A stretch of 63,101 nucleotides of DNA, the filler included, from Vannella sp. (taxonomy: Eukaryota), in NCBI GenBank assembly GCA_023345925.1. It is 7 parts of 7 records of this genome, joined end to end, with 100 filler letters (N's around TTAATTAATTAA, not from the genome) between each part and the next. Parts side by side here need not be neighbours in the genome. Positions count along the whole stretch, not along the records: positions 28,394 to 36,278 come from JAJQQN010001458.1; 6 more parts are not named here. One strand, given 5' to 3'. The stretch's first letter is position 1; every line of letters begins with the position of its first letter. Below, piece by piece: positions 4,572-57,371 of the stretch. The position numbers were made by a program, and so were the translations under genes. The notes under the pieces were generated by a model. The model made no database searches, was not told the origin of the DNA, and saw only the letters and a program-made list of their open reading frames with translations.

Positions 4572-4972
4572 TGGCATTGTCTCCTTCCACGGGAATCAGG
4601 ACAGCACAGACGAGGAGTGGCCGTCATTTTTCCTCACCGCACCCAGCAGGATGAAAAGCGCCCGCAGTTGAGGTGAATGGATGGGTCTGAATCAACACCA
4701 GACATCCCTCCGGCCCCTGGCGGGCCGGACCGCCATCTGATGAGATCTCTTGCATAAAGATTGAACAGGTTCCTCCTTGTTGATCAAGCAGACACCTCCT
4801 CGAGCCTGAAAGCCCCAAGTACAGGGAGAGGACCCCAAAGTACTCCAAAGGGCACCCGTTGGGGGACTTAATCTCCCTCTGACTTGGGAAGGATGGTGAT
4901 TCCCAGGAACATGTTATAACTAGGAATGCTCCTAATTCTACGCGGGAAATCATTTTTGGGCATTCCTTGGGG

Positions 4973-7900
4973 ATGGACGTGACCCTGACTTCGGCGGAGG
5001 GCCTCCAGACGTTCCAGAATCGCTTTGGGGAAGAGGTTACTGTTGGGGAAGTCTTGTTTTGGTTGCAGTACAAGGCAGGCTTGGCCAGTGAGAGGCCTCT
5101 CCTTGTAGATGAGGAAGGGACACCGATCGCCCTTTCAGAGCGAGCCAGTCCTGTGATGTACTACACATCATCCCAAGGCCTTGCAACCAGTGCTTCCACT
5201 GCTCGGGTCTTCCCTAAGCAGATGGAGATTGCTCAGGAGCTCTTTAACACAGCCAAATGGATCCTTGAGCAGGAGAGCGGAGTTCCCATCTCAGAACAGT
5301 TCGACGGCATTGAGTACGTGGTGTGCGTACCTTCTATGAAGAACCTAGTATCTCAAACAAAGGTTCGCATGAGAGACTTGAACTTGGAACCCAACGTACT
5401 CATGTATATGATGAACGGAAGCCACCTACAGAAGATGAAGACTCTGCATTGCCGCATCAAGCACAGTCCACGCACACTCTTTATCATGGTGGCAGATGAG
5501 TGTCATTGGGGTATTGGTTTACCAGAAAGCCAAACGGACAGGGACGGAGCCGCACATATGTTCTTGAACCCTCCAGAGTTATGCGAATGCTCTAATTTCC
5601 TGATTCTGGGAGTCAGTGCGACCCCTTACAACGTTCTGACAAAAACTTCGCGACTTCCGTTCCTGTTTGAGCTCCAAGAAGACTACCTCCAAGCCTCATT
5701 GTCGAAAGGAGACCTATTCAGAGTGCTAGAAAGAGGGAATATTTGGAGAGGGCGCGTGGAAGGACAAACTAGGGAAGTAGAGTTACCTCCAGAGTTTCTT
5801 TTGAAGCAAAAACACAAACACATCGTCTCTTGGGTAAGGAATGTCACCCGAGAGAATGGACTTTTGGACCATCAGATGGACGAAGCACCTTATCTACGAA
5901 TTGAATACTTCCTTCGCTCTATCAACACCCCAACACCTAAGATACGGATGGACGCCGATTTTGAGCGCTTGGCAGACGATTTGAACGAGTCCCTGAGCAA
6001 TGGATCGTATCAGGATCTTATAATAGCAGAGTATGTCTTAGCAGTGCTCTTTGCTGGCTTCATTTACTTTGGTGAAGACCCAAAATCCTTTTGGACAGAG
6101 GTTAAGCAGATTGCAAAGTGGGAAGTTCCTGGAGAGTTTCTCCTTCAAATGAAAAAGACTGGGGACAATGCCGATTATCTGGCCCGAATTCAGCGCCATG
6201 CTGACTTGATTGTAAATGACTGGATTGCGAAAACGAAACTCTCTGGAGCTCAAGCCGGCCAGGAAATAGATGATGCCTCCATCCGTGCTAGAATCATTCA
6301 AGAGAAGAGGGCTGGGCGTGGAGATTGCTATACGACAGCAGACAGAGCCCTTCGAAGAATAGTATATTTGAGGGAAGCTGTTGCTATCCGCATTAGTCCC
6401 AAAGAGGATGCCTTTGCTCTATCCAACATGCTCCAAATAGCCAGGGAGCGTTGTCAGCACTCTTTAGAAACCAAATTTGCGATTGTTTGCAACACTGCAC
6501 AGCGAAAGCTGATCGATTCATCCGAATTCTTACTGCAGCCTCTGGTGTCCGATGCAAAGCGCAAAATGAACGAACGCAACAACCGTAAAAGAGCGAAAGT
6601 GAGCGCGGTTCTCACCCTTGAGCAGTTGGATGTACCATGCTTGCTCATTCTTATTAATATTGGGAAAATGGGAGACACCTTCCCTTGCAACTTTCGGATG
6701 TTTGATCTTCGGGCTATGTATCGCTCTAGAAAAACCAAACCAGCTTTATCAACGTTTATTCAATCCTTGGGACGCATGTGCAAGTATCTGAAGGAAGATG
6801 ATTGCCCTTCTGCCTTTCTGAGTGAGCCTCTTTACAATTCTGTTAAAGAAGCCGTCACAATTCGACAGAGTGACCCAGACAAACAGCTCACTCTACAGCT
6901 TCCTTTTTTTATTGATGGCAAGATAAGCACTCATGACAAGGCTTCTCAGACGTATGAGAGACATGGAGGATTCACAGGGGTGGTGGACGCAACTGAAAAA
7001 TCGTATGACTTTGAGAATTCAATAAGCCATTGTCGCCGTATGATTCTACAAGCCGAGCCGCAAGTGGGAAAGACAACTGCATTCTTATGGTTCCTTAAGC
7101 TCCTCCAAAAGCACTTAGGAAGTCCAAGCGAGGAGTGCATTAGCCCCGAAGAGTCAGAAGCGCATGAGAATCTACCCGGTCGCCTGACTGCCATTCCATA
7201 CTGGAATGACCTTGTCAGGATTCCACCTTCTTCCAGTAGCATCACTCCTCTGTCCAAACTAACAAAAATATACAGACAACGTCTCAAGTGGCTCACCCAA
7301 GCAGGTAACACCAAAGACTGGCTTTCACAGTACCTTCAGCTTGTTCGAGGAGTAGCCAATTCACAAATGGATATCGGAGAGGATGTACTATCCCCAAGCC
7401 TCCGGGCAAAGTTGGATAGACTTCTGGTTAACTGGGGAGATTTAACAAATCCTACAGTGGAGCCGGATTACCCAGAGCTTGCCTGGCGACTGGCCAATTG
7501 GGATGGACGCCTTGATAGAGTCAAAAAGGAAGTTCAGATAGACCAAACAAAAGCTTCCCCACCAGAGAGCAACAAGACTATTGGTTGGGTTAATTTCCTT
7601 CCTCCGATTTCCAGCAAAGCCCTTTCAGTCCGGTCTGCTACTGCAGTTGCAAGCTCTCTTTCTTCTGTCTCCATGAAAACACTCCGCTTGGATCTCACAG
7701 CCATCTCCCGTCAAAACGAATTTGGAGTCCATCTTCAAAGGTCTCATGCACGCCTTTCTGTACCAGATGTAACTCAGTTCCAAGGAGTTAGATCGCTTAA
7801 TGACCTATTTGTCTTCTCTCCATCTGAGGCTAATCGAATTATAGGTTGCAATCCAGCGCATTTAGAACAGTTAAACGTGAACAGAAAAGATTTTTGGATC

Positions 7901-9592
7901 TTTTCGCCCTCTTACAGTGGCACTAATGCCCGTGAACCCAGACTTGACTTCTTCCCAAACATTCCGCATGGACAGCGCCCCATTCATGTTGTTGTTGTGC
8001 GATCTGAAGAGTTCCAAACGTACCAAACGCTCTGGGGCACCCAAAAACTTATCTTGGAGTTGCCAAATCAACTGACAGTCCATGGGCGAGTTATTTCTCC
8101 TCTGATTGGAAAGACAGGTTATGCTCGCTTCTTTATCCAGCTGACTGCCTTCATCTTAAAGCTGCCATCTATCTGGATGGTGGATGACAACATTCTATAC
8201 ACTATCCGCCAGTTCCCAGGAGAAGAGCCTTTCCCATGTCCAATTCGGGAGCCTATGGCATTTATTGAGTCCTTGTTGAGTCCGATACCCGAAGACACTT
8301 GGCAGGAAATGAGAAAGCAAGTTGTCAAGTTGCCTGCTCTGCCCAAGGGAGGAATCTTTGGGGCATTTGGTAATGACACATTTGAGAAGCCTTCTTCATT
8401 TGACTATAGTGGAGATCCGTTTCAAGACTACGCTGCTATTGGCCTTGCAAGAAACACAATGGCATCGTTGAAGCATTGCCGTTATTCCCCCTGGCAATCC
8501 ACTTCCAACTTCTCTTCCTTCATGCTATTGAATGTTGGTGCTATTCCTTTGGGGATAAGGTATCCTTTCAAGGATATCTGGGAGGAGGAAGACTTTCTTT
8601 GGCATTGCCACGAGAAAAAGGAAAGCCCTCTCCGACAATTAGCTGTTGTCCAATGTGGGCTGTTCCATTTCAGCAAAGTGGGAGGAATAGAGATTGTTCC
8701 ACGGACACAAAACGGTCTTCTTCGATGGCATCACAATCTCACGTTCTCTGAGCATGAATGTTCCATCCATGCCAAGCACATTTCTCTCTTCCATCAGTGG
8801 AAGAACGCCCGTGGGATTACAAAAGTTACCGCCACTGACACAACTTCAATCCCAGAAGAAGTCTTCAAACTCGTTACGAAGAACTCTGATCCAACCATGG
8901 CCAAGTGGGCCAAGTTAGTCAAGTTAGCACCCTGTTTGTCCGTTTCTTGGACAAAAGAGGAATTGAGAGACTTGGCCAATGTAGAGCTTTCGCAGATTTA
9001 TGTGTTTGCTGACCTGGGAGCAGCACCTTCTTCAGGACATGCCTTGGAGCTTGTGGAAGGCCAAATCATTCGGCCACTCTTTGCTGGGTTAAGTCGTCCT
9101 ATCAAATCATTTGCAGTGGAAAGTGCGCATTTGTTGGCTGATAATGATCTCTCCATCAATTGCCGGGGCCCCACCTTTTGGCATCGCCTTGCATTAATCA
9201 CTGTCACTTTACGGAAACCTCCTCGCACAGAATCTTCACAAGAGGCAACTCCGAAAGTAGTGGGAGATAGGACACCATCTCCATCAGATGATCATACCTT
9301 CCCAACAGTAGATGAACTACGCCGTTATGGTAAACCAGTGCCACTAACAAAGGATGATTTAAAGAATCTTCCGGAATTCAACGAGTCACCAACTCGCCAG
9401 TACATCAAAGACCGGAGACTCTACGCGGTGTATAAGAGCCAAGTATTTCTTGTTATCAGAAGGCACAGCAAAGAGGCTCTCCAAGTCGAATCCCCCGGCA
9501 ATAAGATATCCTATCCTTCTCCAGGGAAAACGGACCTTTTCCATTTCACAGGAGCCAAGTCCATCCCCTTCGAACTCGACAGAAAGGACTAA
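4973..9592 (+). CDS. GREB1-like protein: circularly permuted SF2 helicase plus C-terminal TAGT/GT-A glycosyltransferase, intronless
   Basis: Motif Ia VCVPSMKNLVSQT, II DECH (5495), III SATP (5615), V GKMGDTFP and VI QSLGR (6761) all precede Walker A AEPQVGKT (7052). The C-terminal part has FSPSY, HVVVVRSEEFQTYQTLW, GYARFFI, IWMVDDN (8171) and EEEDF, as in GREB1/JGT-like glycosyltransferases. Confidence 0.8.
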   Translation: MDVTLTSAEGLQTFQNRFGEEVTVGEVLFWLQYKAGLASERPLLVDEEGTPIALSERASPVMYYTSSQGLATSASTARVFPKQMEIAQELFNTAKWILEQESGVPISEQFDGIEYVVCVPSMKNLVSQTKVRMRDLNLEPNVLMYMMNGSHLQKMKTLHCRIKHSPRTLFIMVADECHWGIGLPESQTDRDGAAHMFLNPPELCECSNFLILGVSATPYNVLTKTSRLPFLFELQEDYLQASLSKGDLFRVLERGNIWRGRVEGQTREVELPPEFLLKQKHKHIVSWVRNVTRENGLLDHQMDEAPYLRIEYFLRSINTPTPKIRMDADFERLADDLNESLSNGSYQDLIIAEYVLAVLFAGFIYFGEDPKSFWTEVKQIAKWEVPGEFLLQMKKTGDNADYLARIQRHADLIVNDWIAKTKLSGAQAGQEIDDASIRARIIQEKRAGRGDCYTTADRALRRIVYLREAVAIRISPKEDAFALSNMLQIARERCQHSLETKFAIVCNTAQRKLIDSSEFLLQPLVSDAKRKMNERNNRKRAKVSAVLTLEQLDVPCLLILINIGKMGDTFPCNFRMFDLRAMYRSRKTKPALSTFIQSLGRMCKYLKEDDCPSAFLSEPLYNSVKEAVTIRQSDPDKQLTLQLPFFIDGKISTHDKASQTYERHGGFTGVVDATEKSYDFENSISHCRRMILQAEPQVGKTTAFLWFLKLLQKHLGSPSEECISPEESEAHENLPGRLTAIPYWNDLVRIPPSSSSITPLSKLTKIYRQRLKWLTQAGNTKDWLSQYLQLVRGVANSQMDIGEDVLSPSLRAKLDRLLVNWGDLTNPTVEPDYPELAWRLANWDGRLDRVKKEVQIDQTKASPPESNKTIGWVNFLPPISSKALSVRSATAVASSLSSVSMKTLRLDLTAISRQNEFGVHLQRSHARLSVPDVTQFQGVRSLNDLFVFSPSEANRIIGCNPAHLEQLNVNRKDFWIFSPSYSGTNAREPRLDFFPNIPHGQRPIHVVVVRSEEFQTYQTLWGTQKLILELPNQLTVHGRVISPLIGKTGYARFFIQLTAFILKLPSIWMVDDNILYTIRQFPGEEPFPCPIREPMAFIESLLSPIPEDTWQEMRKQVVKLPALPKGGIFGAFGNDTFEKPSSFDYSGDPFQDYAAIGLARNTMASLKHCRYSPWQSTSNFSSFMLLNVGAIPLGIRYPFKDIWEEEDFLWHCHEKKESPLRQLAVVQCGLFHFSKVGGIEIVPRTQNGLLRWHHNLTFSEHECSIHAKHISLFHQWKNARGITKVTATDTTSIPEEVFKLVTKNSDPTMAKWAKLVKLAPCLSVSWTKEELRDLANVELSQIYVFADLGAAPSSGHALELVEGQIIRPLFAGLSRPIKSFAVESAHLLADNDLSINCRGPTFWHRLALITVTLRKPPRTESSQEATPKVVGDRTPSPSDDHTFPTVDELRRYGKPVPLTKDDLKNLPEFNESPTRQYIKDRRLYAVYKSQVFLVIRRHSKEALQVESPGNKISYPSPGKTDLFHFTGAKSIPFELDRKD

Positions 9593-12041: not shown

Positions 12042-12141
12042 NNNNNNNNNNNNNNNNNNNNNNNNNNNNNNNNNNNNNNNNNNNNTTAATTAATTAANNN
12101 NNNNNNNNNNNNNNNNNNNNNNNNNNNNNNNNNNNNNNNNN
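12042..12141. other. Artificial contig linker (N44-TTAATTAATTAA-N44)
   Basis: 100-nt N run with a six-frame stop linker, repeated identically six times in the window. Confidence 0.98.
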
Positions 12142-20587: not shown

Positions 20588-20687
20588 NNNNNNNNNNNNN
20601 NNNNNNNNNNNNNNNNNNNNNNNNNNNNNNNTTAATTAATTAANNNNNNNNNNNNNNNNNNNNNNNNNNNNNNNNNNNNNNNNNNNN
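20588..20687. other. Artificial contig linker
   Basis: N run with TTAATTAATTAA. Confidence 0.98.
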
Positions 20688-28293: not shown

Positions 28294-28393
28294 NNNNNNN
28301 NNNNNNNNNNNNNNNNNNNNNNNNNNNNNNNNNNNNNTTAATTAATTAANNNNNNNNNNNNNNNNNNNNNNNNNNNNNNNNNNNNNNNNNNNN
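28294..28393. other. Artificial contig linker
   Basis: N run with TTAATTAATTAA. Confidence 0.98.
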
Positions 28394-30594
28394 CAGTCCG
28401 TCCACGGAAAGTCCATCTCCACGAGGGAGCGGTTGTGCATGAAGCTGGCCAAGAGCATCTTCCAGCCACTAGGAGAGATGTTGTTCCCGTCACAGCGAAG
28501 ACGAAGCAGTCTGGAGTTGTATCTCAGCATGTCAGCGATAGCCGAAGCAGCCTGGTCGCCCATTAAGTTGTTGCTCACATCCAACTCCAAAAGAGTGTTG
28601 TTTGTGCGGCGCATGTACTTCAAGAAGGGGATTGCAACGCTGCCAAACCCACCAGCTATGCTAATACTCTTCACAGATGCCAAAGAGTTGGCCACAGACA
28701 TGAGCGCGGACGAGACACGCTCCCCCGCATACGTGGACTTGTAACAATTGTCAAGAATAAGTGTGTCCAGGGTCTGAGTGGCGGATAGAACGATAGCCTG
28801 TAAGATTCCAATAAGTCCTCGCTCTTTGAACTTGTTACGGGACAAGTCCAGAGTGTGGCAATTGACATTCAGCGACAAACTCTGAGCTAACGATTCAGTC
28901 TCAGACTCGCTGAATTCGTTGTTGCAGAGTGAAAGGCAAGTATTAGAAAGTCTCTTATTGCCCAGGAAAGCCTGGACAATGGCACCTCCGTGTACTCCGC
29001 CCAAGTTACAGTGAGACACATTCAATCTCTTCAAAGTATTACTTTTCTCTAACATAGAGCACAGCAGCTGCACAGCTCGCTGGTCAAGCTTACTGTAAGA
29101 AAGATCCAAGTCCTGCAAATCACTTAGAAAGTGGAAATAAGCGGCGATTGTCGAGAAGGATTGCCCAGTATTGGCCAATCGAAGAGTTTGGAGCCGTGAA
29201 TACTCTGCTGCCTTTGATAACCACGTTTCCAAGGCGATGCTAGCCTGCTCATCAAAGCGATTGTTGGAGAGGTCCAGCTCTTCAATAGTCAGAGACATTC
29301 CGTAGTTGGCAGTGAGACTTTCTGCAATAGAAGCCAGCTGCCTTCCATCCAGGGCACAATCAGAGAGATTGAGAACCTTCAAGCTGTGTGGGAAGTTCTG
29401 CAACGTAATGCAGAGCACGGAGATGCCTTTGGTAATGTGAGTTCCAGATAGATCGATCATTTGAAGCGCGTGGGACCGATTGTACTGCAGTGCTTCCCCC
29501 AGCTCTGTCACGTTCCCTTCTGAGAGCTGAGATAAGGACACCTTGGTGATGCGACTGTTATAGCGAAGAATGTTGCAAAGGGCGAAGAGAATATCCTTCT
29601 TATAGACTTGTACCGCTGAGATAGCCTTAAAGTAGGTGTTGTAACGCAGTGCAGCAGCGATTGGCTCGATATTGAATGAGAACTCGCCCTTAGGTTCGAT
29701 GCCAGGGCAGTCCTGGAAGCGGAACTCGACCACCCCAGCTTCATGCAAGTCCGTGACGTACCGCATCACTTCGCCAGAGATAGCCTGTTTGTAGAAGGTG
29801 CTAAAGGCTCCGAAAGTGAAGAGAAACCCGTTCGCTGGCCCAAAGGCCGAAGGGTCGCACGGTTCCAAAGGGAGAACACTACAAACAGCAATAAAGAGTG
29901 AGCTAAGGATACCCTCCTTGTAGAGCACACTTACTCTTCTTCTTCTACACCAAACAGGCCAGGTAAACGAGCATTGGGGAAGCCGTACGTGAAGAGACGG
30001 ATGGCCGTGCGAATCTGTCGGATGTACTCTGCTACCAACGGCGTGAAGAGGACAAGCGGAGACTTTTGATAGAACTGGAGCTCCAGCTAGTGCTGTATGA
30101 GTCCAGAGGAACAGGGGAGTGGCAGGGAGGGTCCTAACCTGTCGTTTGTTATTCTTAAAGACTGAAATAGAGCGCAATGCGAGGAGATGGAACTTCTTGG
30201 TGATCTACAGGAGAGAAGTAACGCATGTGAGCCATTGAGAAGGTACAACAGGGTGGGAATAGAGCGGAGAGAGCTACCTTGAGGCGAACGGAGCCTGGGA
30301 AGAGGGTTTTCTTCTTCTTGCCGAGCATAGAAGACTTGATGCGCGCCTGTTTGATGATGAAGATCATATACGACCCAATGACTATGATACGCTTGGACAC
30401 CTTCGTGTTCTCCTTCGTTTCACCCCAACGAGCAAAGACTACTTTGTTTTGGTACTCAGAGACGAGTCTCTCCACGCAGTCTTCTCTTCTGTGAGTACTA
30501 GCGACCTCCCTCCATCCCTCTACTCACGTAATTGACCCTCACTAAGCTCATTGGAGCTGCGAGCGCTCGTCTTCTTCTCCACCCGCAGCGGCAT
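28394..30594 (-). CDS. CARMIL: CARMIL-like PH plus RNI-like LRR protein, multi-exon, 3' truncated
   Basis: N-terminal PH-like KRIIVIGSYMIFII; GPANGF..T...F..FY; PIAAALRYNTYF; many LxxLdLSxN repeats; LDVSNNLMGDQAA. Confidence 0.75.
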
Positions 30595-30614
30595 CGCTCA
30601 GAGCGGCCTCAGAA

Positions 30615-32417
30615 ATGGTTCCCTGGCGAGGTACCTTCTTATTTTCGATGCTGCGTGGGGCTGGCGTGGTCCAGGTGGCGAGGAGGAAGCGTCCCGCAGG
30701 GTTTTGGAGAGAGAAGGAGAAGGCGGCCGCCTTTTTAGAGGCGTTGGCGCAGCGGTGGTGCTTGAAGGCTCCTGAGGATTGGGCAGGAGTTACTACTCGC
30801 TGTGTACTCGAGGAGGGTGGAAGAGGGCTGCTGGCGGAGTACGGTACGCTTCGCAAGGCGTTGGAGGAGCTCCGTCCAGAGGCTGTTTGGGACTACTTTG
30901 CGATGGGCAAGTACCCACACGGTCATTGGGACACCCCTGAACATGTAAGACTCTTCATGGAACGCTTAGCGGCTGAGTATCAGGTGGAATCGCCTCCGGA
31001 TTGGAGAAGAGTGACGTGGTCCCAAGTAGACCTCCACGGAGGAGCTACACTGCGCAAGAGGTTCCCCAACTTTGTAGCTTTATTGAAAGGAGCGTTCCCT
31101 GAACAGACAGAGTGGGAGGAGAGCGTGGTTCGAGAGAAACTGCCGCAAGGCTTTTGGGACCTTCCAGACAATCGGAAGCGCTTCTTGGAGCGTGTACGAG
31201 AGGATATGGCCGTGCGCTGCGCGGATGATTGGCGTAAGGTGTCGACGAAGGATATAGTGGCCATGGGAGGCACTGGAATGCTCTCCAAGTATTCTACTTT
31301 TGAAGAACTCTTGAGAAAGGAGCTTCCCGATGAAGGATGGAGCACTTTTGACACTCGCGACCGCGTTTCTAATGGATATTGGACAGCAGAACGTATCAGA
31401 GAACACGTGGAAAGTGTCAGGACCACACTTAAGGTCAAAGAGCTGGATGATTGGTCTTCCATCTCACTTCTCCAATTTCGGAAAGCCTCTGGCAATCGTT
31501 CTTTCCATAACCAGTTCCCTAACTTTGTGGAGCTGTTGCAGTCTGTTTATCCAGAACACACTTTCGATCCATTTGATTGGCAAAGGCTGCCTAGAGGCTA
31601 CTGGAAGAACATTACTAATCAGCGCCGATTCCTGGAGAGATTCGCTTTTGAGCACAATATCCAGGCTCTCTCCGACTGGCGAAAAGTGTCGTACGCCTTC
31701 CTGGAGAGGAATGGGGGCCGTTCCCTTCTAAGACATTACCCTTCCATGCTTGAGATGTTACAATCAGTCTATCCTGAACACCATTGGGACATATTTGATC
31801 GAGATAACGTCTCGGGAAGATACTGGAAAGATCCCCAAAGACAAGCTGGTCTACTAACCCAGATTGCCGAAAAGTTTTGCATCAAAACTCCAGAGGATTG
31901 GTACCGGGTATCCCTTAAGCAGCTGCAATCTATGAGAGTCGCTTCTTATGTCAAGCGTCATGGTGGCCTTTACCAGATTTTGAAGGAATCCCACCCAGAA
32001 GTCCCTTGGGAGCAATCCAAATTCCAGACTAGAGATAAGCGTTCCACCCAACGCTCCATGTTCTTGGCGCTCCGGGACTTGTTCGAAGGAGAAGAGATTG
32101 TAGAAGACTTCTTTCACGAAGAACTCACAAGAGAGAGCGGCTCTGGCATTCAATTTGACGTTTTTGTTCCTCGACTTCAAGTGGCTTTCGAGTACCAAGG
32201 GGAACACCACTTCCGGGACATTCCTGCTTTTGGCACACTGGAGCTGTTCCAGTCCCGAGACAAGGAAAAGGCCAAGCTATGTGAGAACTTTGGAATTCAC
32301 TTAGTTACAGTGCCGTATTGGTGGGACGGCTCGAAACAGCATTTGAGTGACTTGGCCTCCAAACAGCACTTTAGCATTCTCGAAAAGCAGCTCTTACCAG
32401 ACCGCATTAAAGTGTGA
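30615..32417 (+). CDS. Protein with six ~74-aa helical repeats and a C-terminal PD-(D/E)XK (Vsr/DUF559/RAP-like) nuclease domain, intronless
   Basis: Repeat consensus G(F/Y)W...N.R.FLE......DW..V.......GG..LL..Y......L...(Y)PE..W. C-terminus QFDVFVP...AFEYQGEHHF...RDKEK...C...GI.LV.VPYWW. Confidence 0.8.
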   Translation: MVPWRGTFLFSMLRGAGVVQVARRKRPAGFWREKEKAAAFLEALAQRWCLKAPEDWAGVTTRCVLEEGGRGLLAEYGTLRKALEELRPEAVWDYFAMGKYPHGHWDTPEHVRLFMERLAAEYQVESPPDWRRVTWSQVDLHGGATLRKRFPNFVALLKGAFPEQTEWEESVVREKLPQGFWDLPDNRKRFLERVREDMAVRCADDWRKVSTKDIVAMGGTGMLSKYSTFEELLRKELPDEGWSTFDTRDRVSNGYWTAERIREHVESVRTTLKVKELDDWSSISLLQFRKASGNRSFHNQFPNFVELLQSVYPEHTFDPFDWQRLPRGYWKNITNQRRFLERFAFEHNIQALSDWRKVSYAFLERNGGRSLLRHYPSMLEMLQSVYPEHHWDIFDRDNVSGRYWKDPQRQAGLLTQIAEKFCIKTPEDWYRVSLKQLQSMRVASYVKRHGGLYQILKESHPEVPWEQSKFQTRDKRSTQRSMFLALRDLFEGEEIVEDFFHEELTRESGSGIQFDVFVPRLQVAFEYQGEHHFRDIPAFGTLELFQSRDKEKAKLCENFGIHLVTVPYWWDGSKQHLSDLASKQHFSILEKQLLPDRIKV

Positions 32418-33032
32418 GTTATCAACACGACAGGGAACGGAACTCTTTCTGCACTTGGGGAACGTTGAACATGACATCGAGATCCTTCAAGGAGTCCAGT
32501 TAACGTAAGCCTTGCTCCCGAGAATGTCAGATTGAAGGGGAAAGTATCCATCAGTAAACTCAAACTTTCATGCTGAGCTGGGAGTCGTTGCAGTCATTTG
32601 TTGCAGAGGTTGATGTGAGAGTCTCTTACCAGGGAGCAGCAAGCAGAAGCTATGCGGAAGAGTTGGGTCGTGAGAGAGGTCAAGAACATCAAACATACTG
32701 CCGGATACGACCCGAATAGCTTCCTGCTGGATCACACAAAGACACGAAAGACCAGGAAAGTTCTTGATTGAGAAGAACGACAGAATCCAACCCTCCTCAT
32801 GTGGGTGCTTCCGCCACTTCCTTCAAACAAAATGCGTCTTTCTGTTCAGCTGACAGCTCTTGCACTCCAGACAGCTTCCAACCAGAGATTCTGCACCAGG
32901 TGATAAAGTGGTAATTATTGTCTCATTATTTTGGCAGAAAGTTATCGTTGCCTGAGCAATTGTCAAGTTTCCTATGATATTCAATGTTGAAATTTCAAAG
33001 ACCAGAGAGGTTGCTGGGTCATTCTTCCATTG

Positions 33033-35488
33033 ATGGGTGGGCGTGTGTGGGACGGCGGGACCGGTTGGGAGTTGTCTGTGCTGCAAGCTATTTTGGACGA
33101 GGAACCTGAGAAGCTCAACCAAGTGAGGCCCTGTAGTGAATGAGGCGAGCGGTCCTGATGAAAGGGATCGCTTTTTAGTTTGTGAGTGAAGCAAAGAAAG
33201 CTACCGTGGAGCTGACCAACACCTCGTTTAGCATGTTAGTCCTACCTTTCGGCTTTGTCTAAGAGTGCCAGGCGCGAGGGAGAGCGACATCTGAACGAAA
33301 GCCCTTTAGGAAGTAGGTCAAAAGGGATCCCTGGTTGTTGGACTCACTAAACGGCTACGGCTACAGGAAGTAGGCATCAATCATGATGTAATGTTGTCCA
33401 AGGACCTCACCAAAAGGGCTCTTGATTAGTTTGTAAGGCCTGTCGAGGATAGCCAGGCGTGATGCTCACTCACAGATCATTTAGTCTGTAAGAAGTCTTC
33501 AGCTGTTTGATTTAGGATGAATGTAGACCCTGATAAAATGACGGCAGTGGGGAGTGAGTGACTTTGAGCGGAAGATGCTCTCCAGCAGAAAGGCTCATCA
33601 TTGCATTCTAGATGGTAAGTCACATGCCTCTTTGAAGGGCTGAGGGAACAAACCACATCTTTGGAATACCTTTTTACTCACCAGATTCCTCCAGAGTGTG
33701 AGTAACTGATGATTGAGAGGAAGTGGCTCATTGAATCGGTGATCTAGTCTGTAAGTGGCCCATCTCCAAAGAGGAACGCAGCTGGGACTTTTTAGCAAGG
33801 ACTCACCGCCACATTTGAAGAAAGTATGAGTGAAACTGACAATGGAAAGCTCTTAACAATCTGCTTTTTTAGCGCGTATGCTTTATCGTTCAATGGAGGT
33901 CTGGTGTACTCACCATGTTCATTCATAGTGGGTCAGTCACTTCTTACAACGAAATTGGAAAGCTTAAAGCATTCAGACGTTTCTTGGACTGGCGGCTGCG
34001 AAAGGGAACACTGAATTTATCGAAAATTTGCTTTCCCGTCGAACCATCAACATTCATCGAGGAGTGCGTTCTAATTGAACAGTTCCCTGACACTGATTCT
34101 TTTTTAGTCTGTGAGTACCATTCTCGCAAGCAAGATTTTAGTGGAAACAATGCTCATCAGTAATATCGGTGTAGTATGTAAGAAAATGGATCTGCTAGCT
34201 TGAGGGAAGGTGAACTGCGCCTTACTGTGGCCCAATTCAGGATGTAAGTATTTAAGGGAGAATTTCTAGTTCTCACAAACTTTTAAGTACGTGAGAAGCT
34301 TGTCTGTTGAGGTGATATTTGTGACCTCACTCCGCTGGTCTTGTGTAGGTTGTGAGTAATTCGTCAGAGAATAAGATTTTTTCTAACCTTTGTTCTCCTT
34401 CAGGTGGTGAGTCATTCCATATCTTGCCCAGAGAGCCAGTCCATGATTGGTGTCGGAAATTAGAATGTAGGTAAAACACTAAGAAAATTCGGAGGAGCTT
34501 GCTGGTAACAACAGCTTTCAGCGAGTAAGCAAGTGGAAGGGAAGATTCTGTTGATGCATCTCACCAAAACGGGTCTGCAGACAGTGAGTGATTGGACAGT
34601 TTCGAAAAAACATTCTTACTCTTCCTTACAGTTTGTCAGTATCCGTTTACCGACCATCTTCTGTTCTGATTTTTCTCCCCACAGAGGGTAAGAAACAACT
34701 AGAATGGACTTTGAGGCACTCACTGCCAATAGGGTTCAACTTATCGAGTAAGTCAAAATTTCCCTTTCATTGAATGGATCTGACTGGACAGAGAATAGCA
34801 GCCATTGGAACTGGCGTGTAATCCCAAGATTGAGGAGATGCTGAAGAGGGCAGGAGGCAGGCCTCCTTTCATCCCGCCTCTCGATTACGATCACCTGTTC
34901 AAGCTCAAGATCATCGGAGATCTAGGTTGCGGCAGGGGGTGTGTGATTCGCCGATTTGTAGACGACACTTACACGGAGTCCTACATAATTCGCAAATCAG
35001 AAATTTTTGATAAGACCATTGTGGTGAAGGGTAAGTCTATCAAGCTCCAGATACATCTTGAATCAAACGACGGCGTTGAAAAATTCCGGAACGTCGGTGG
35101 TCCAGGCATCTACTATGAAATCCAGGGCATCATCATCATATATGATGTTACAGATCAGGCTTGTTTCTCGAATGTGAAACAGTGGCTGCAAGAACTCGAT
35201 CGATACGCTCCTGACAATGTCAAGAAGCTGCTTGTCGGAAACAAGTGTGATTTGACCACAAAGCGGGAAGTTGAGTTTGACACCGCAAAACAATTCGCTG
35301 ATGAACACAAAATCCCTTTCTTGGAGACCTCTGCCAAGAATTCAGTCAATGTCGAGGAGGTCTTTTCCTTGCTTGCCACTGATATCTATGAGACGGTCAC
35401 TGAGAAAGAGGCCCCAGTTCCTCAGACTTCAACTGTGGGTGTCTCTCCTGGGAAAAAGCAGGGAAAACAAAAGTGCAGAATGCAGTAG
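33033..35488 (+). CDS. Micro-exon gene: ankyrin module with single-codon micro-exon loops fused to a degenerate Rab1-like GTPase (28 exons, 318 aa if all exons are included)
   Basis: Exon 1 33033-33122; 13 micro-exons 33179-33931; ankyrin exon 33977-34063 (TFLGLAAAKGNTEFIENLL); 12 micro-exons 34108-34747; last exon 34799-35488 (QPLELA...Rab fold, NKCD, ETSAK, CRMQ). All 27 introns are GT-AG, 44-80 nt and phase 0. Confidence 0.88.
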
Positions 35489-35640
35489 CTGAAGTACCAA
35501 GATTAAGCAGGACGTAATGAAGCTCTTTTACTCCCGAAGTAGGACTTGATTGTGTTACAAATGAGACCAACAGCTGCTACTTTCAATCATTCGCAGAGAA
35601 TGCGCATGTTGCTCATCTGTCTGACTCGTCGGGGCTCTGT

Positions 35641-35830
35641 CTTTTGGCACAATGGAACTTTTCGGTCTCGACAAGGAAAAGGCCAAGCTACTTGGGAGCT
35701 TTAGGATTCACAAAGCTGAATTGCTGTGTTGGAGACGGCTCGAAACTACATGTAAGTGACTTGGTCCCCAAGCAACAACATTGTTGTTGAACTTCCAAAA
35801 GCAGCTCTTACCTGACTGCATAAAAGTGTA
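35641..35830 (+). pseudogene. Decayed duplicate of the 3' end (32227-32417) of the repeat-nuclease gene
   Basis: Collinear shared blocks CTTTTGGCAC, GACAAGGAAAAGGCCAAGCTA, GACGGCTCGAAAC, AGTGACTTGG, AAAAGCAGCTCTTACC and AAAGTGT, with indels. Confidence 0.85.
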
Positions 35831-36047
35831 GCAACAACCTGTTTAGCTTGAGTTTATGATTATCTTCCGGTTTCACAGCATTTGAGGAAGGACTCTATGG
35901 AGTTATCTAGCCATTTCTGGTGAAGGAGTGAGTCTTGAATGATCAAATCGAACGAGAATCTCGATGCAAAGCCAGCCAAGAGATCTCCGAGAGATCTCCG
36001 GCACAAAAAAGTGAAGGAATCTTCCTTCTGTGTGCCAAGAGGCTTCG

Positions 36048-36098
36048 TCGTGATTGGCTGGCTGATGTTCATTCATTCCGGAGTCGTGATTGGCTGGC
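36048..36098. promoter_or_regulatory. Tandem CCAAT-box-like element (GTCGTGATTGGCTGGC x2)
   Basis: 16-nt direct repeat containing ATTGG. Similar CCAAT/ATTGG boxes sit just upstream of starts near 39018, 48181, 54773 and 62198. Confidence 0.4.
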
Positions 36099-36278
36099 CG
36101 TTTTTTCATTTCACATCCTTGTTCCTATTGATAAAGGTAGACGATGACTTGTTGTGGTGGATGAGAGACTGTTTATTGAGAAGACAGAAACAGCTTAAGT
36201 AGCTGTTCCTGTTAGATTGAAAAGGGGAATTCTGAGAATGGGTACCGATTCTCATGGGTGGTTCGATCGAATGCTTCG

Positions 36279-36378
36279 NNNNNNNNNNNNNNNNNNNNNN
36301 NNNNNNNNNNNNNNNNNNNNNNTTAATTAATTAANNNNNNNNNNNNNNNNNNNNNNNNNNNNNNNNNNNNNNNNNNNN
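36279..36378. other. Artificial contig linker
   Basis: N run with TTAATTAATTAA. Confidence 0.98.
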
Positions 36379-36525: not shown

Positions 36526-37026
36526 CTATTCAGACTCCAAACTGAGGGCTCTTGGGAAGACTTTGCCCTTTCTGATGGCCTCCAAGGCTCTTTTGGAATT
36601 GTTTTCTTCAGCTATTTGAGGAGGAGTTTGGCCGTATCCGTTCTTAACGCCGGAAGAGCCATCTCCGTTCTGGAGGAGTTCAAAAATAACTTCAGCGTGG
36701 TCATACTCGGCGGCCCAATGCATTGGCGTGTTACTCTCTGAGTCAAGAGTCACCGTGGCGTTGTGTCTGAGGAGAAACCGCACTACGGAGGGGTCCCCTA
36801 CTTTGCAGGCCCAGTGAAGAGATGACTCCTGAAAGATGTTCCGGGCATTCATGTGGGCACCTTTTCCCACAAGATACCGAACGGTTTCTTCGTTGCCACC
36901 CAGAACAGCGTAGTGTAAGGGCGTTGACTCATAGAGGGAGAGAGAGTTCAGATCGCTTAGGAGTTGATCCAGAGAATCCCTTTGAAAGTGGCCACTGACT
37001 GCCGTGCGGAAGATTGGAGAGTCCAT
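36526..37026 (-). CDS. Small ankyrin-repeat protein (tandem paralog A)
   Basis: STPLHYAVLGG, ESSLHWACKVG, NTPMHWAAEYDH and GQTPPQIA. Confidence 0.88.
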   Translation of the reverse strand: MDSPIFRTAVSGHFQRDSLDQLLSDLNSLSLYESTPLHYAVLGGNEETVRYLVGKGAHMNARNIFQESSLHWACKVGDPSVVRFLLRHNATVTLDSESNTPMHWAAEYDHAEVIFELLQNGDGSSGVKNGYGQTPPQIAEENNSKRALEAIRKGKVFPRALSLESE

Positions 37027-37511
37027 CGGACAGGCAAAGAATAGAATGGTCAGAGTATCGGCGTCTATCAGATCGGGTTCCCAGAATCAATCTTGATTTG
37101 TACTTGTGGGAGCAGGTGAATGTTCCCGAAAGGTCTCCGTTTCGTTTGGAAAAGGAAAGATGATCAACAATCGGACTCCTGCGCGCCCTTTTCTGAATCA
37201 GTTTACGACTGAAGACTTCGCCTGAAGATTGTGATAAAGAATCATTGACAGTCTCTGAGATAACTTGGAAAGGGTCTGAATGTCACCATTAATCACTTCC
37301 GTACATTCCAAAGTTCGCTCCTCCTTGATGATAAAGGATAGAAGGCGAAGAGAATCATTCCCAAGGCAACGCAGAGCAATGAAACTCAGTTTGATCCTGA
37401 TCGATTTGTTTGGGAAGGACTCTCTCGACACCTCTCCTGTAAACTGTTGGTTTTGGTCATGAGAGAAGTACCATCTCAAAAGCATCAGAGAAGAAGTTCA
37501 AAAGAAGAGTT

Positions 37512-38018
37512 TTACTTTTCTGTCTTCCACTTAAAGACTGGAGGGGAGCCTTTCCCCTTCTTGAGAGCAACGAGGGCCTTCTTGGAGTCGTTCCTCTCGG
37601 CTAACCGAAGAGGAGTATGTCCATCCTCGTTCTTGATACGACAAGACGGTCTGCCTCCATTGTGTAAGAGTAAATGAATGACCTCATCATGATCGTACTC
37701 AGCAGCCCAGTGCATTGGCGTGTTTCTTTCGGAGTCCAGAGTAACCGAAGCTTTGTGTTGGAGGAGGAAACGCACCACGTTGGGGTTGCCTTCTTTGCAA
37801 GCCCAGTGCAGAACTGATTCTTGGAAGATGTTCTTTGCGTTCAAGCAAGCGCCTTTCTTCACCAGGTATCGGATGGTCTCCTCATCACCACCCAGAACAG
37901 CGTAATGCAAGGGTGTTGATCCGTAGAGGGAAAGAGAGCCCAAGTCGCGCAAGTGAGAGTCAAGAGATTCCTTCCGAAAGACCCCATCGACTGCAAGACG
38001 GAAGATAGGGCAATCCAT
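37512..38018 (-). CDS. Small ankyrin-repeat protein (tandem paralog B)
   Basis: Closely similar to paralog A: MDCPIFR..., STPLHYAVLGG, NTPMHWAAEYDH. Confidence 0.88.
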   Translation of the reverse strand: MDCPIFRLAVDGVFRKESLDSHLRDLGSLSLYGSTPLHYAVLGGDEETIRYLVKKGACLNAKNIFQESVLHWACKEGNPNVVRFLLQHKASVTLDSERNTPMHWAAEYDHDEVIHLLLHNGGRPSCRIKNEDGHTPLRLAERNDSKKALVALKKGKGSPPVFKWKTEK

Positions 38019-39049
38019 AAGACAGCCAAAGAATGGTCGCAACTTGAATCGATGATCAGAATGGGCGCAATCTCGATCGACTTCGAGTAAGCAACCCAAA
38101 CAAGGTAAGGTCGGACTTGCGGCCGTCCAAAAGAAGGTCTTTCTGCAATGTTCTCCATATGAAGAGGACCAGTTTTTGGTTCATTGATCAAACCAACAGC
38201 GAATCCAACCAACGAAGAGGTAGAGAGAACACTTCTGGGGGCTTCTGAGTCTGGGAACGATAACTTCTGGTTTGGCCTCATCGGTCACCGGTGGTTCATC
38301 CATGTTGAGAGAGGTCTATGAAGTCCAACGCCAAGCCCAAAATGAAAGCATTGAATAGAAGCACTCAATGGGGCTCATGATGGTCGGTTGTCGCATTCCT
38401 GGAGTGTGTGGGAGGCTCTGCCCAAGGAAAGCGACTGCTTCCCACATACCAGCGTCTACGACAGGATTCTCTCCTTCTTATTCCTTGCTGTCCTCTTCTT
38501 CCAGGGGTTCTTCTTCCACTTCGGGGCTCATGTGTGAGCTCATCATGCTGTTGATGCGGTCTACGTCGTCGTCCGCATTGAACTCGATCTCATCGTCATC
38601 TGCTAGCTCCTCCACGAGGTTCCACAATGGTTCGAAACTCAGCGTCTCCCTCCTCCTCTTCCTCCTCTCGGTGCTTGTCTCTCCACAGTCGTTCTTCCTC
38701 CTCCTCTTCTTCCTCCTAAGCGTACTCATCATTGGGCTGGATACTCCTCAGAGTAATCTGGTGTGAACTCTCCATCATCTCCGCTGTCGGCTCGGCTCCT
38801 CTCCCTGCCACCGGAGAAGGGAAAGTCATGGGCCGATAAAATGATCTTGACCAACTCAGGGGTGATAGAAATGATTTACTTTGAAAGTTGGTCACAACTC
38901 CTGAATTTTGTCCTCAGAAACGGAGAAACACCCATCGGGAGACATCTGGGGTTAATAAACATATAAAAAAGTTCACTGGTTAAGGTACTGATCAAATTTA
39001 TAATCGCAGTCAATTTGATTGGCTTCCAGTTCTTGTTTCCCACCTGGCG

Positions 39050-42320: not shown

Positions 42321-42420
42321 NNNNNNNNNNNNNNNNNNNNNNNNNNNNNNNNNNNNNNNNNNNNTTAATTAATTAANNNNNNNNNNNNNNNNNNNNNNNN
42401 NNNNNNNNNNNNNNNNNNNN
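42321..42420. other. Artificial contig linker
   Basis: N run with TTAATTAATTAA. Confidence 0.98.
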
Positions 42421-54939: not shown

Positions 54940-56363
54940 TCACCAATAGGGATCGAGTAGTGCCTCGAAATCAGGGGCTACAAACCTGGCATATTCACGG
55001 TTGATATGAACAGAATCTTGGAACTGCTGGATTCCATGAATGACATTCCAGCATGTTCTGTTGGGGCAGATAAACGCGTCCATGTTCAACACAGCATATT
55101 GGTTTTCTTCCCCCGCAGCTGTTAGTTGCTCGCGGGCTTCCCAATATCCGTTTGCTATGGATGCTGGTCCAAAGCAGTCTGGATCGCCGTTCTCTAAGCA
55201 GGGTTCCATTCCAACGCCTACCAAATTGATATGAGGGAGCATGATGACTATTTTCGTTAAAGGAGACACGTTGATGAGAGCTTCCTTGACTCCTTCCCTC
55301 ATTATCTTATTCCATTCGGGAGATAATCGACTGGCCCATGGCCCGTTTGGAACAGAGGCGCTACGGATTTGGCTGTGAGTAGTGAAAGAGAGGCAGAAGA
55401 GGATGATGGACTTGGGAGGGGGCTGGCGATTGATAGCATCCCACAGTCTTTCTTGGTCGAATTCGTTCGTAGGCTCTCCGGCACTCCAATTTGGAATCAG
55501 TTTCATCCAAGGCGTTGAAACTGCCACCAAATGTTCGATCCGTATGGATCTCTTCTTTCTGATTGAGCTAATGACACCGCTTTGTACCCATTCTTGCAGA
55601 TAGGAGTCTCCAAGGAGCAATGAAGGGCCTACCGTTTGGACAGAGGTATCTGACGGAGCACCTCCAGGATGGCCTTCAAGAGTTCCCAGTTGTTCGTTTT
55701 CATCTTCAAACGTGAAGTTTGTTCTCGGAAGGAGTATGAGGATGCTCAGAAACGCGAGAATTGAGATCACAAATCCACAAAAGAGAACCTGGGACGACGG
55801 CAGTCGAAGAGATTTGAGAGGCTTCTCAAGAAGAACATTCGAGATGGCTCCGCAAGCGAAAGTCGCTAAAATCAAGAAGACACCTCGAACCAGATCCATT
55901 TTCGTGTCAAAGGAACGCGTCATTTCGTCCACAAAGATCAGAGGATAGTGCCAAAGGTACATCGAGTAAGAGTACAGTCCAAGCCTTTGAAAAAGGGGAC
56001 CAGAAAGCACTTCTGCAGCAAAAGTCGAAGAGTTGAGCTCGAAGCCGACGATCATTAGGGCCATGCATCCCGTTGCAATCGCCCCTGCTAAAAGTGGCGC
56101 GATTTTGAAAGGGTAAACACTCAAAAGGAGGAAGCACACGAGCCCAGTGTAGGACAAGGTGCTGGAAAGAGCCTCATTTGAGATGAATTGCTTCTTTTCT
56201 GTCCTGGAAAGCTGCCACAACGCCAAGCATGCACCCACTACCAGCTGATAGATACGGAACTGCGTTCCATAATATAACGTGCTCGCAGGAACGCCTTGAG
56301 AGGCGCATGCGAGAGTGAATGCACAGCAAAGCACCAGAAGGCCGATCGCAAAGAGGAACACTC
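54940..56363 (-). CDS. Acyltransferase-3 plus SGNH (OatA/OafA-like) protein, C-terminal half only
   Basis: YYGTQFRIYQL..G, G.YSYSMYLWHYPL, LEKPL; SGNH motifs LLGDSY and DSVH. The 5' half is absent at the junction. Confidence 0.75.
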
Positions 56364-57271
56364 ATTGCTGGTGTATCTGGCGTACAAGCTTGGAGGGAGC
56401 CACCAACGAGTGCTCCTCTTTGCGATCGGCCTTCTGGTGCTTTGCTGCGGGTTCACTCTGGCCTGCGCCTCTGAAGGCGTTCCTGCGAGTACGTTATATT
56501 ATGGAACGCAGTTCCGTATCTATCAGCTGGTAGTGGGCGCCTGCCTGGCGCTGTGGCAGCTTTCCAAATCCGAAAGGGAAGTAAATCGGCAGGGGCCCCA
56601 GCCGGGGCTCGTCTCAAGCGCAATGTCATACACTGGATTGACATCCTTTCTACTTCTCAGCTTGTATCCCAATGAGATCGCGCCTCTGCTGGCCGGAGCG
56701 ATTGCAACGGGATGCATGGCCCTCATGATCGTCGGCTTCGAGCTCAACTCTTCGACCTTTGCTGCAGAAGTGCTTTCTGGTCCCCTTTTCCAAAGGCTTG
56801 GACTGTACTCTTACTCGATGTACCTTTGGCACTATCCTCTGATCTTTGTGGACGAAATGACGCGTCCCTTTGACACGAAAATGGATCTGGTTCGAGGTGT
56901 CTTCTTGATCCAAGCCACGATTGCGTGTGCAGCAGTCACACATGTCGCAATTGAGAAGCCCTTGAAGACGATGAAGATTTCTACGGCATCAGTTCTGGTC
57001 GTTGGGGTGATCATATCACTATTCGTGAGCTCAGGCACTTTCATTCTTCTCTCTGACGCACCAAAGATCGTGATTGAAGAGGACCACGTGATCCTGGACC
57101 CTCCTTCTCATGCTCCTGAGACAATCGATCCTCCCAAAGCGATTGAGATTCTTGATCCTCCCAAAGCTGTTGAGATTCTTGATCCTCCGGCCCAGGCTGT
57201 CGAGGATCATGAAAATCGCGAGACTGTGGAACTTGGACCGACAATGCTGGTAGGAGATTCTTACTTGGAGG
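56364..57271 (+). CDS. Second AT3-SGNH paralog fragment, inverted relative to the first and truncated by the contig end
   Basis: Near-identical AT3 helices; linker with ILDPP(K/A) repeats; ends at LVGDSYLE. Confidence 0.75.
57090..57192 (+). repeat. Coding 27-nt tandem repeat (EILDPPKA-type), about 4 copies
   Basis: GATCCTCCCAAAGC...GAGATTCTT units. Confidence 0.75.
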
Positions 57272-57371
57272 NNNNNNNNNNNNNNNNNNNNNNNNNNNNN
57301 NNNNNNNNNNNNNNNTTAATTAATTAANNNNNNNNNNNNNNNNNNNNNNNNNNNNNNNNNNNNNNNNNNNN
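57272..57371. other. Artificial contig linker
   Basis: N run with TTAATTAATTAA. Confidence 0.98.

Follow-up and report, generated by a model that had tools for sequence, protein, structure and literature searches.

Two arrays of single-codon micro-exons in a predicted ankyrin-Rab1 gene of the amoeba Vannella sp.

The locus described here raises two questions: whether a protist splices a receptor repertoire, and how the spliceosome handles 3-nt exons between 50-nt introns. Both are posed by a small gene, 2.5 kb long, in a window of 63,101 nucleotides from Vannella sp. (GCA_023345925.1), the window being the whole stretch of DNA that was analysed. An earlier note on this DNA had parsed part of it without gaps into AG, exon and GT units, and had read the result as a 28-exon gene in which micro-exons build the binding loops of an ankyrin-Rab protein. 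The features of the gene and of the rest of the window are collected in Table 1. The window is composed of seven contigs joined by spacers, and thus the order of genes across the spacers is meaningless.

Table 1. Features of the micro-exon gene and its surroundings, in window coordinates.
Feature	Position	Strand	Description
Contig with micro-exon gene	28394..36278
Exon 1	33033..33122	+	90 nt, ATG start, phase-0 donor; possible degenerate N-terminal ankyrin repeat (by eye)
Micro-exon array 1	33179..33931	+	twelve 3-nt exons and one 6-nt exon; 14 residues with all in; starts at 33179, 33232, 33310, 33367, 33430, 33485, 33548 (6 nt), 33612, 33695, 33748, 33821, 33873, 33929
Framework exon, 87 nt	33977..34063	+	helix-turn-helix core, one ankyrin repeat, 29 aa
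Micro-exon array 2	34108..34747	+	eleven 3-nt exons and one 15-nt exon (34733-34747); 16 residues with all in; 3-nt exons start at 34108, 34175, 34241, 34288, 34349, 34404, 34464, 34522, 34581, 34632, 34685
Last-exon start	34799..34900	+	likely ankyrin C-cap and proline-rich linker; conserved in related proteins (alignment)
Rab1-derived G domain	34901..35389	+	P-loop, switch I and switch II altered; G4 and G5 intact
Polybasic tail, CaaX (CxxQ) end and stop codon	35450..35488	+
LRR gene	28394-30561	-	on the micro-exon gene's contig; homologs at 81% identity
Intronless 623-codon ORF	30546-32417	+	repeated W-rich units, nuclease-like C-terminus (by eye)
Two tandem, closely related ankyrin genes	36529-38180	-	on another contig; no array
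1569-codon ORF	4883-9592	+	GREB1-type circularly permuted SF2 helicase, E 4e-74
Two acyltransferase-3 ORFs	54940-57327	opposite strands	overlap 56278-56361; one with SGNH domain
Six identical spacers, N44-12nt-N44	12042-12141, 20588-20687, 28294-28393, 36279-36378, 42321-42420, 57272-57371

The gap-free parse of the earlier note was borne out at every coordinate. All 28 exons were found where it had placed them, with HAG preceding and a GT donor following each micro-exon, and they are separated by 27 GT-AG introns of 44-80 nt. The joined exons (957 nt) form a single open frame of 318 codons and a stop, and the ATG at 33033 is preceded by an in-frame stop at a distance of 15 codons. The earlier count of 23 three-nt exons, one 6-nt exon and one 15-nt exon is confirmed; each of the 25 micro-exon units has a length divisible by three and lies in phase 0, and all 54 splice sites are intact. 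The interval 33123-34798 contains 23 HAG-NNN-donor units, compared with an expected 0.78 +/- 0.86 and a maximum of 5 in 2000 dinucleotide shuffles, and the same interval holds no HAG-donor unit with 0, 1, 2, 4, 5, 7, 8 or 9 nt between the sites. A chance origin of the units is ruled out by these shuffles. In addition, 22 of 27 introns have the branch motif CTNAY at a distance of 11-24 nt upstream of the AG, compared with 3.2 in shuffles (maximum 10; 5000 shuffles). This motif was absent from the parse of the earlier note and thus represents independent support for the gene model. The splice-site anatomy and the open frame are present at the DNA level, and the predicted gene is strongly supported by them.

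Two remarks of the earlier note on the content of the micro-exons stand in part. It is true that no micro-exon is a stop codon, but this carries little weight, since zero stops among 23 single codons would be expected by chance about one time in three ((61/64)^23) and alone proves nothing. The loops had been called rich in aromatic and charged residues; the aromatic part holds, with aromatic residues making up 7 of 25 (p about 0.003).

The introns of the gene are unrelated to each other. Only 5 of 351 intron pairs reach z > 4, adjacent introns resemble each other no more than distant ones do, and the three best alignments shown are short, two of them centred on the branch motif. A tandem repeat or minisatellite is ruled out, since the intron bodies are unrelated and the flank identity is 0.26-0.29. 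A CRISPR-like or other prokaryotic repeat is also ruled out, with unrelated spacers and eukaryotic neighbouring genes. Splice signals kept at 27 introns whose bodies are unrelated imply long selection on each unit, and introns that have diverged to background indicate that the array is old.

Introns of the same size and with the same motifs are present in the LRR gene of this contig, which we take to be CARMIL-like. Its introns measure 52, 56 and about 70 nt; when the two candidates of 52 and 56 nt were taken out, the score of its alignment with a homolog rose from 618 to 904. The 623-codon ORF, which lies directly upstream of the micro-exon gene, had no Pfam match at E 0.01. No second array was found in the window, where 16 plus-strand and 20 minus-strand 3-nt matches outside the gene are scattered at background level. 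Elsewhere in the window, the helicase ORF at 4883-9592 also has a weak match to the TET-associated glycosyltransferase family, which is tied to DNA base modification.

The ankyrin part of the predicted protein is recognized in one place. The 60 best PDB matches of the 87-nt exon are almost all ankyrin or DARPin chains by name, with a best match at E 1e-5 summed over repeats. The top clusters for this exon in the ESM Atlas are ankyrins (score 0.95, a recognition below the tool's threshold), and a Pfam search of its peptide gave no match. Neither the exon 1 peptide nor the cap with which the last exon begins had an ankyrin match in Pfam or PDB searches. Thus, one of three presumed ankyrin elements is detectable, and the other two resemble ankyrin ends by eye. 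Since exon 1 and the cap went undetected as ankyrin, the placement of array 1 in a loop depends on motifs read by eye. The earlier note had put both arrays in ankyrin beta-hairpin loops; the array 1 half of the claim keeps that by-eye standing.

The length of the repeat varies with the content of array 2. Four ordinary ankyrin repeats used for comparison have 32-35 residues. The 87-nt exon gives 29 residues, so 4-5 residues from array 2 would complete an ordinary repeat of 33-34 residues. With the 15-nt exon alone the repeat has 34 residues, with all 16 residues of array 2 it has 45, and with none it has 29. The form with all micro-exons in would therefore probably have an unusually long loop, and the form with all out would probably be too short. 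A weak ankyrin profile, built from the 4 repeats, scored all 2520 array-2 isoforms at 4-8 bits, too little to tell them apart.

The last exon encodes a domain related to Rab1. Its Pfam Ras match has an E of 8e-42, and Ras, Roc and Arf matches are confined to this exon. The best PDB matches of the G domain are Rab1A/B and Ypt1, it is 57-59% identical to Vannella-type Rab1, and the best-scoring named single-domain Rab1 match is from Vannella robusta. Like Rab1 and Ypt1, it has G4 and G5 intact. Unlike them, it has altered G motifs, a CxxQ end and an ankyrin part predicted at its N-terminus. The P-loop departs from GxxxxGK[ST], with the Lys and Ser replaced; the G3 DxxG with its catalytic Gln is missing, and switch I is not conserved. 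The C-terminus is CxxQ, not CC or CxC, whereas Vannella Rab1 proteins end in CxC. A CxxQ end with a basic tail suggests farnesylation and anchoring to the plasma membrane. The earlier note had taken the Rab domain as ordinary, a view that the loss of the P-loop lysine and DxxG and the CaaX end contradict.

Related last exons define a family of six: the Vannella gene, P0006, P0045, P0091, P0208 and P0209. The five relatives share the cap and linker with the Vannella last exon and end in a basic tail and CxxQ, so that this end is found in 6/6 members. WDTAGQ is missing in 6/6, and the P-loop lysine is lost in 2/6, including the Vannella protein. In four members scored against V. robusta Rab1, 13, 11, 8 and 4 of 34 residues are identical in switch I+II, compared with 90, 84, 76 and 78 of 132 (58-68%) in the rest of the domain (Fisher p 0.003 to 6e-7). 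Switch identity is 99.7% in 90 canonical Rab1 matches, which were themselves selected on the switch II motif. Thus, the most conserved part of Rab is the most variable part here. The G domain of the micro-exon gene carries three short motifs that occur together in 20 of these 90 matches, including V. robusta; best matches and motifs thus point to a vannellid amoeba as the likely host. The three-motif set was found in none of nine named animal, fungal or other matches and in neither of two other amoebae checked; one match that has the full set is, however, an entry for a ciliate transcriptome. A quick Rab1 tree gave the family very long branches and did not resolve its placement.

All six family members are in databases as the last exon only, and the entries come from gene callers that do not splice. 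Genes of this kind are therefore invisible to ordinary gene calling. An ankyrin or spliced N-terminal part was absent among the 120 protein matches listed, and a spliced N-terminal part was absent among 36 inspected of 150 further matches. A junction-only protein search matched the Vannella protein itself and nothing else. A family search of viral contigs gave one ordinary viral Rab.

Arrays of the same design were found outside Vannella. The earlier note had called for a scan for repeated units of this kind. A three-unit pattern scan of metagenome contigs yielded at least 120 stretches in at least 118 loci, and 112 loci were left after 6 duplicates or fragments were dropped. Chains of six or more units were present on 90 locus-strands, to which a filter based on spacing and branch motifs, and blind to codon content, was applied; 42 passed and 48 were rejected. 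Thus, 42 of the 112 non-duplicate loci (L019-L136) have chains of 6-39 three-nt exons with branch motifs, which is a lower bound on the arrays present. A comparison of the 118 loci with the exons of the Vannella gene gave no match. Stops occur in 3 of 727 codons of the 42 arrays, compared with 45 expected. In all 22 of 22 arrays whose introns are still similar, which indicates recent duplicates, codon likeness (0.40) is below that of nearby intron DNA (0.69). On prokaryote loci, for which shorter flanks were taken, the same filter passed 2 of 121, both with near-invariant triplets. Stop avoidance, codons more divergent than introns and this prokaryote control together indicate that the design is real, in frame and codon-diversified. 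In most metagenome arrays the introns are still more alike, whereas those of the Vannella array have diverged to background. In viral contigs the pattern matched 19 stretches in 18 loci, and these resemble tandem repeats or chance matches.

Where flanking genes at the metagenome arrays could be identified (63 ORFs scanned), they are NACHT, NACHT-ankyrin or weakly G-domain-like, and these loci would appear to be fungal-type. At L087:1746-5026 (-), L045:2316-5085 (+) and L091:1694-3833 (+), arrays follow a P-loop G-domain-like gene with weak MMR_HSR1/Arf matches (E about 1e-3) and precede a short helical region. Flanks similar to these are seen at L028, L070, L076 and L083, a family link made by eye. 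Loci of the L087/L045/L091 type may represent a fungal-type family of GTPases that carries codon-sized arrays and differs from the nank and HET genes. The NACHT genes at L078:75-4638 (+) and L052:2076-5996 (+) have arrays of 30-32 units. L078 is NACHT-ankyrin, with an array that begins inside the last ankyrin repeat and has 2 stops in 30 codons. At least 42 further arrays in one metagenome scan suggest that the design is far commoner than reported.

The explanation that we favour by a little is that skipping of micro-exons yields a mixture of ankyrin-Rab1 proteins with predicted loops of varied length and sequence. A 3-nt exon is too small for two spliceosomes at once, and introns would therefore leave in sequence, the spliceosome removing the 44-80 nt introns one by one. 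If a donor paired with the next-but-one acceptor, one codon would be lost without a frameshift or stop. A single skip would need an intron of about 100-140 nt, which is plausible, and long skips would be rarer. The arrays would form beta-turn loops, the surface with which ankyrins contact their targets, and loops shorter than the all-in form would be viable, since an ordinary repeat needs only the 4-5 array-2 residues noted above and all 16 lengthen it to 45. The Rab1 moiety may no longer cycle as a normal GTPase and may instead serve as a membrane-anchored scaffold or bait, in a protein that would sense foreign proteins in the cytosol. In Rab1, the switch regions are the binding surface for Rab partners and regulators and for several bacterial Rab1 effectors, according to the accessible portion of PMC8605245, and a bait or sensor role is therefore plausible but unproven. 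The number of distinct loop peptides is 4048 for array 1 and 2520 for array 2, with a product of 1.0e7 as a ceiling. The 2^25 (3.4e7) combinations of the earlier note thus overstate the diversity, the distinct peptides being a third of that number. The predicted repertoire would be at most 1.0e7, and fewer if very short loops fail to fold or long skips are rare; because long skips are expected to be rarer, the real repertoire would lie far below this limit.

The size of the introns, the lack of a spliced N-terminal part among the protein matches inspected and the single detectable ankyrin element count against the splice-diversity reading. Exon skipping across eukaryotes goes with exons that are short and sites that are weak, but it is comparatively low in amoebozoans and usually accompanies long flanking introns (PMC6142364, as far as its accessible text goes). 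The Vannella introns are short, unlike this usual correlate. The micro-exons may thus be real and almost always included, in which case there would be one main protein with two long loops, and diversification would proceed over generations by duplication, loss and mutation of units and not within the cell. This is a tenable alternative, though we consider it unlikely. It agrees with the low skipping in amoebozoans, with most splice sites being near consensus and with the fungal-type arrays, which are tandem copies with divergent codons and show diversification at the DNA level that needs no skipping. However, the Tuber arrays are reported to be extensively alternatively spliced (PMC13449251 and PMC9815663, in the passages available), the mutually unrelated introns imply that recent unit duplication is not what maintains the Vannella units, and the donors of 8 of 25 micro-exon units are other than GTRAG, which would favour skipping.

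Two further alternatives concern the gene itself. It is improbable that the gene model is partly wrong, with exon 1 or array 1 unjoined or the Rab exon expressed by itself from an internal start. No ankyrin similarity could be detected in exon 1, and for the Vannella gene and all its relatives the databases hold the last exon only, as such a model would have it, but these proteins come from callers without splicing. The parse from the ATG to the stop is free of gaps and uses 27 of the 31 donor-like sites in 33123-34798, and the residues before the cap in two relatives (P0045; P0328 with P0329) would read like the end of an intron. Slightly less credible still is a silent or decaying relic, or a locus that is mostly intron-retaining junk. 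The GTPase motifs are degenerate, and in eukaryotes intron retention is commoner than other modes of alternative splicing (PMC6142364, in the same accessible text). Retention of any one of at least 23 of the 27 introns would introduce a stop or frameshift, introns 33313 and 34584 alone being in frame and open. Since nearly every retention breaks the frame or adds a stop, retained forms would nearly all be dead ends. A relic is difficult to reconcile with 54 intact splice sites, an intact frame and kept branch motifs, with a last-exon protein that is unchanged in three database entries from two sources, and with G4, G5 and CaaX motifs conserved across six relatives at 40-52% identity.

If micro-exon skipping does diversify the ankyrin-Rab1 protein, a bolder and doubtful extension is that the amoeba possesses a natural counterpart of a DARPin library. 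Single codons would be skipped stochastically, so that thousands to millions of loop variants appear on a membrane-anchored Rab1 decoy with switches diversified among paralogs. Such an immune-like repertoire would have arisen independently of the fungal arrays and would catch Rab1-aimed proteins of intracellular bacteria or giant viruses. Against the splice-diversity reading in general, the signal of diversifying selection comes from the other, fungal-type loci and not from the Vannella gene, and the divergence of the switches could be mere relaxation.

The closest known system is fungal. Iotti et al. 2012 is said to be the original report of codon-sized, alternatively spliced exons in ankyrin genes of Tuber melanosporum. 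The earlier note knew of no description of such an architecture, but the NACHT-ankyrin (nank) genes of this truffle have tens of alternatively spliced 3-bp mini-exons, as described in the accessible text of PMC4986451, PMC10197012, PMC13449251, PMC3689799 and PMC9815663. In the available part of PMC13449251, arrays of codon-sized exons figure as a lineage-specific peculiarity of NLR genes in truffles. Both systems have runs of codon-sized exons in an ankyrin-domain gene and, on the Tuber side by these partial accounts, a proposed diversification of a recognition surface; the Vannella gene shares the ankyrin (87-nt exon) and the tens of in-frame 3-bp exons (23). The differences are that the host is an amoebozoan and not a fungus, that the partner is a Rab1-derived domain after the ankyrins and not NACHT, and that the Vannella arrays have a framework exon at either end and are stop-free, unlike the NACHT-ankyrin array of L078. 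A Pfam search of the Vannella gene and of ORFs scanned on the same contig found no NACHT domain. The gene lies outside the nank family but would likely work like it.

Other systems share parts of the design. Schistosoma MEG genes resemble the Vannella gene in their variable products and numerous short exons, the smallest of 3 bp, but the products are secreted, the exons range over 3-81 bp and the introns reach 5 kb (PMC10526429, from the portion accessible), whereas the Vannella gene has near-all single-codon exons, 44-80 nt introns, a folded scaffold and a CaaX end. In brown algae, ROCO and NB-ARC-TPR genes are likewise repeat-domain receptor candidates with exon shuffling and alternative splicing, and the ROCO proteins also carry a Ras-like domain (PMC11378527, PMC13449251, in the text available); there, however, an exon is a whole repeat or part of a domain, whereas a Vannella exon is one loop residue. 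The Vannella units, single codons between unrelated introns, are also unlike cassettes of the Dscam type. Dscam is a receptor diversified by splicing with homologous, domain-sized, mutually exclusive exons. LoopDARPins tolerate extended loops. In DARPins the variable positions are the beta-turn loops and the following helices, and in DARPins and LoopDARPins, as in the arrays here, variation is concentrated in ankyrin beta-turn loops (PMC10484509, in its accessible part). DARPins are artificial libraries of 4-5 repeats, whereas the Vannella gene has about 2.5 repeats, varied by predicted splicing.

Literature searches, with incomplete coverage of subscription journals, found no amoebal or ankyrin-Rab micro-exon case among the papers listed. 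Three features of the predicted gene appear to be new: the amoebal host; the two arrays, which lie one before and one after an ankyrin repeat and are bordered by framework exons; and a partner derived from Rab1 whose switches are scrambled and which ends in CaaX. An old, well-kept array in an amoeba, in a protein different from that of the fungal genes, suggests that a device for varying loops residue by residue was invented more than once.
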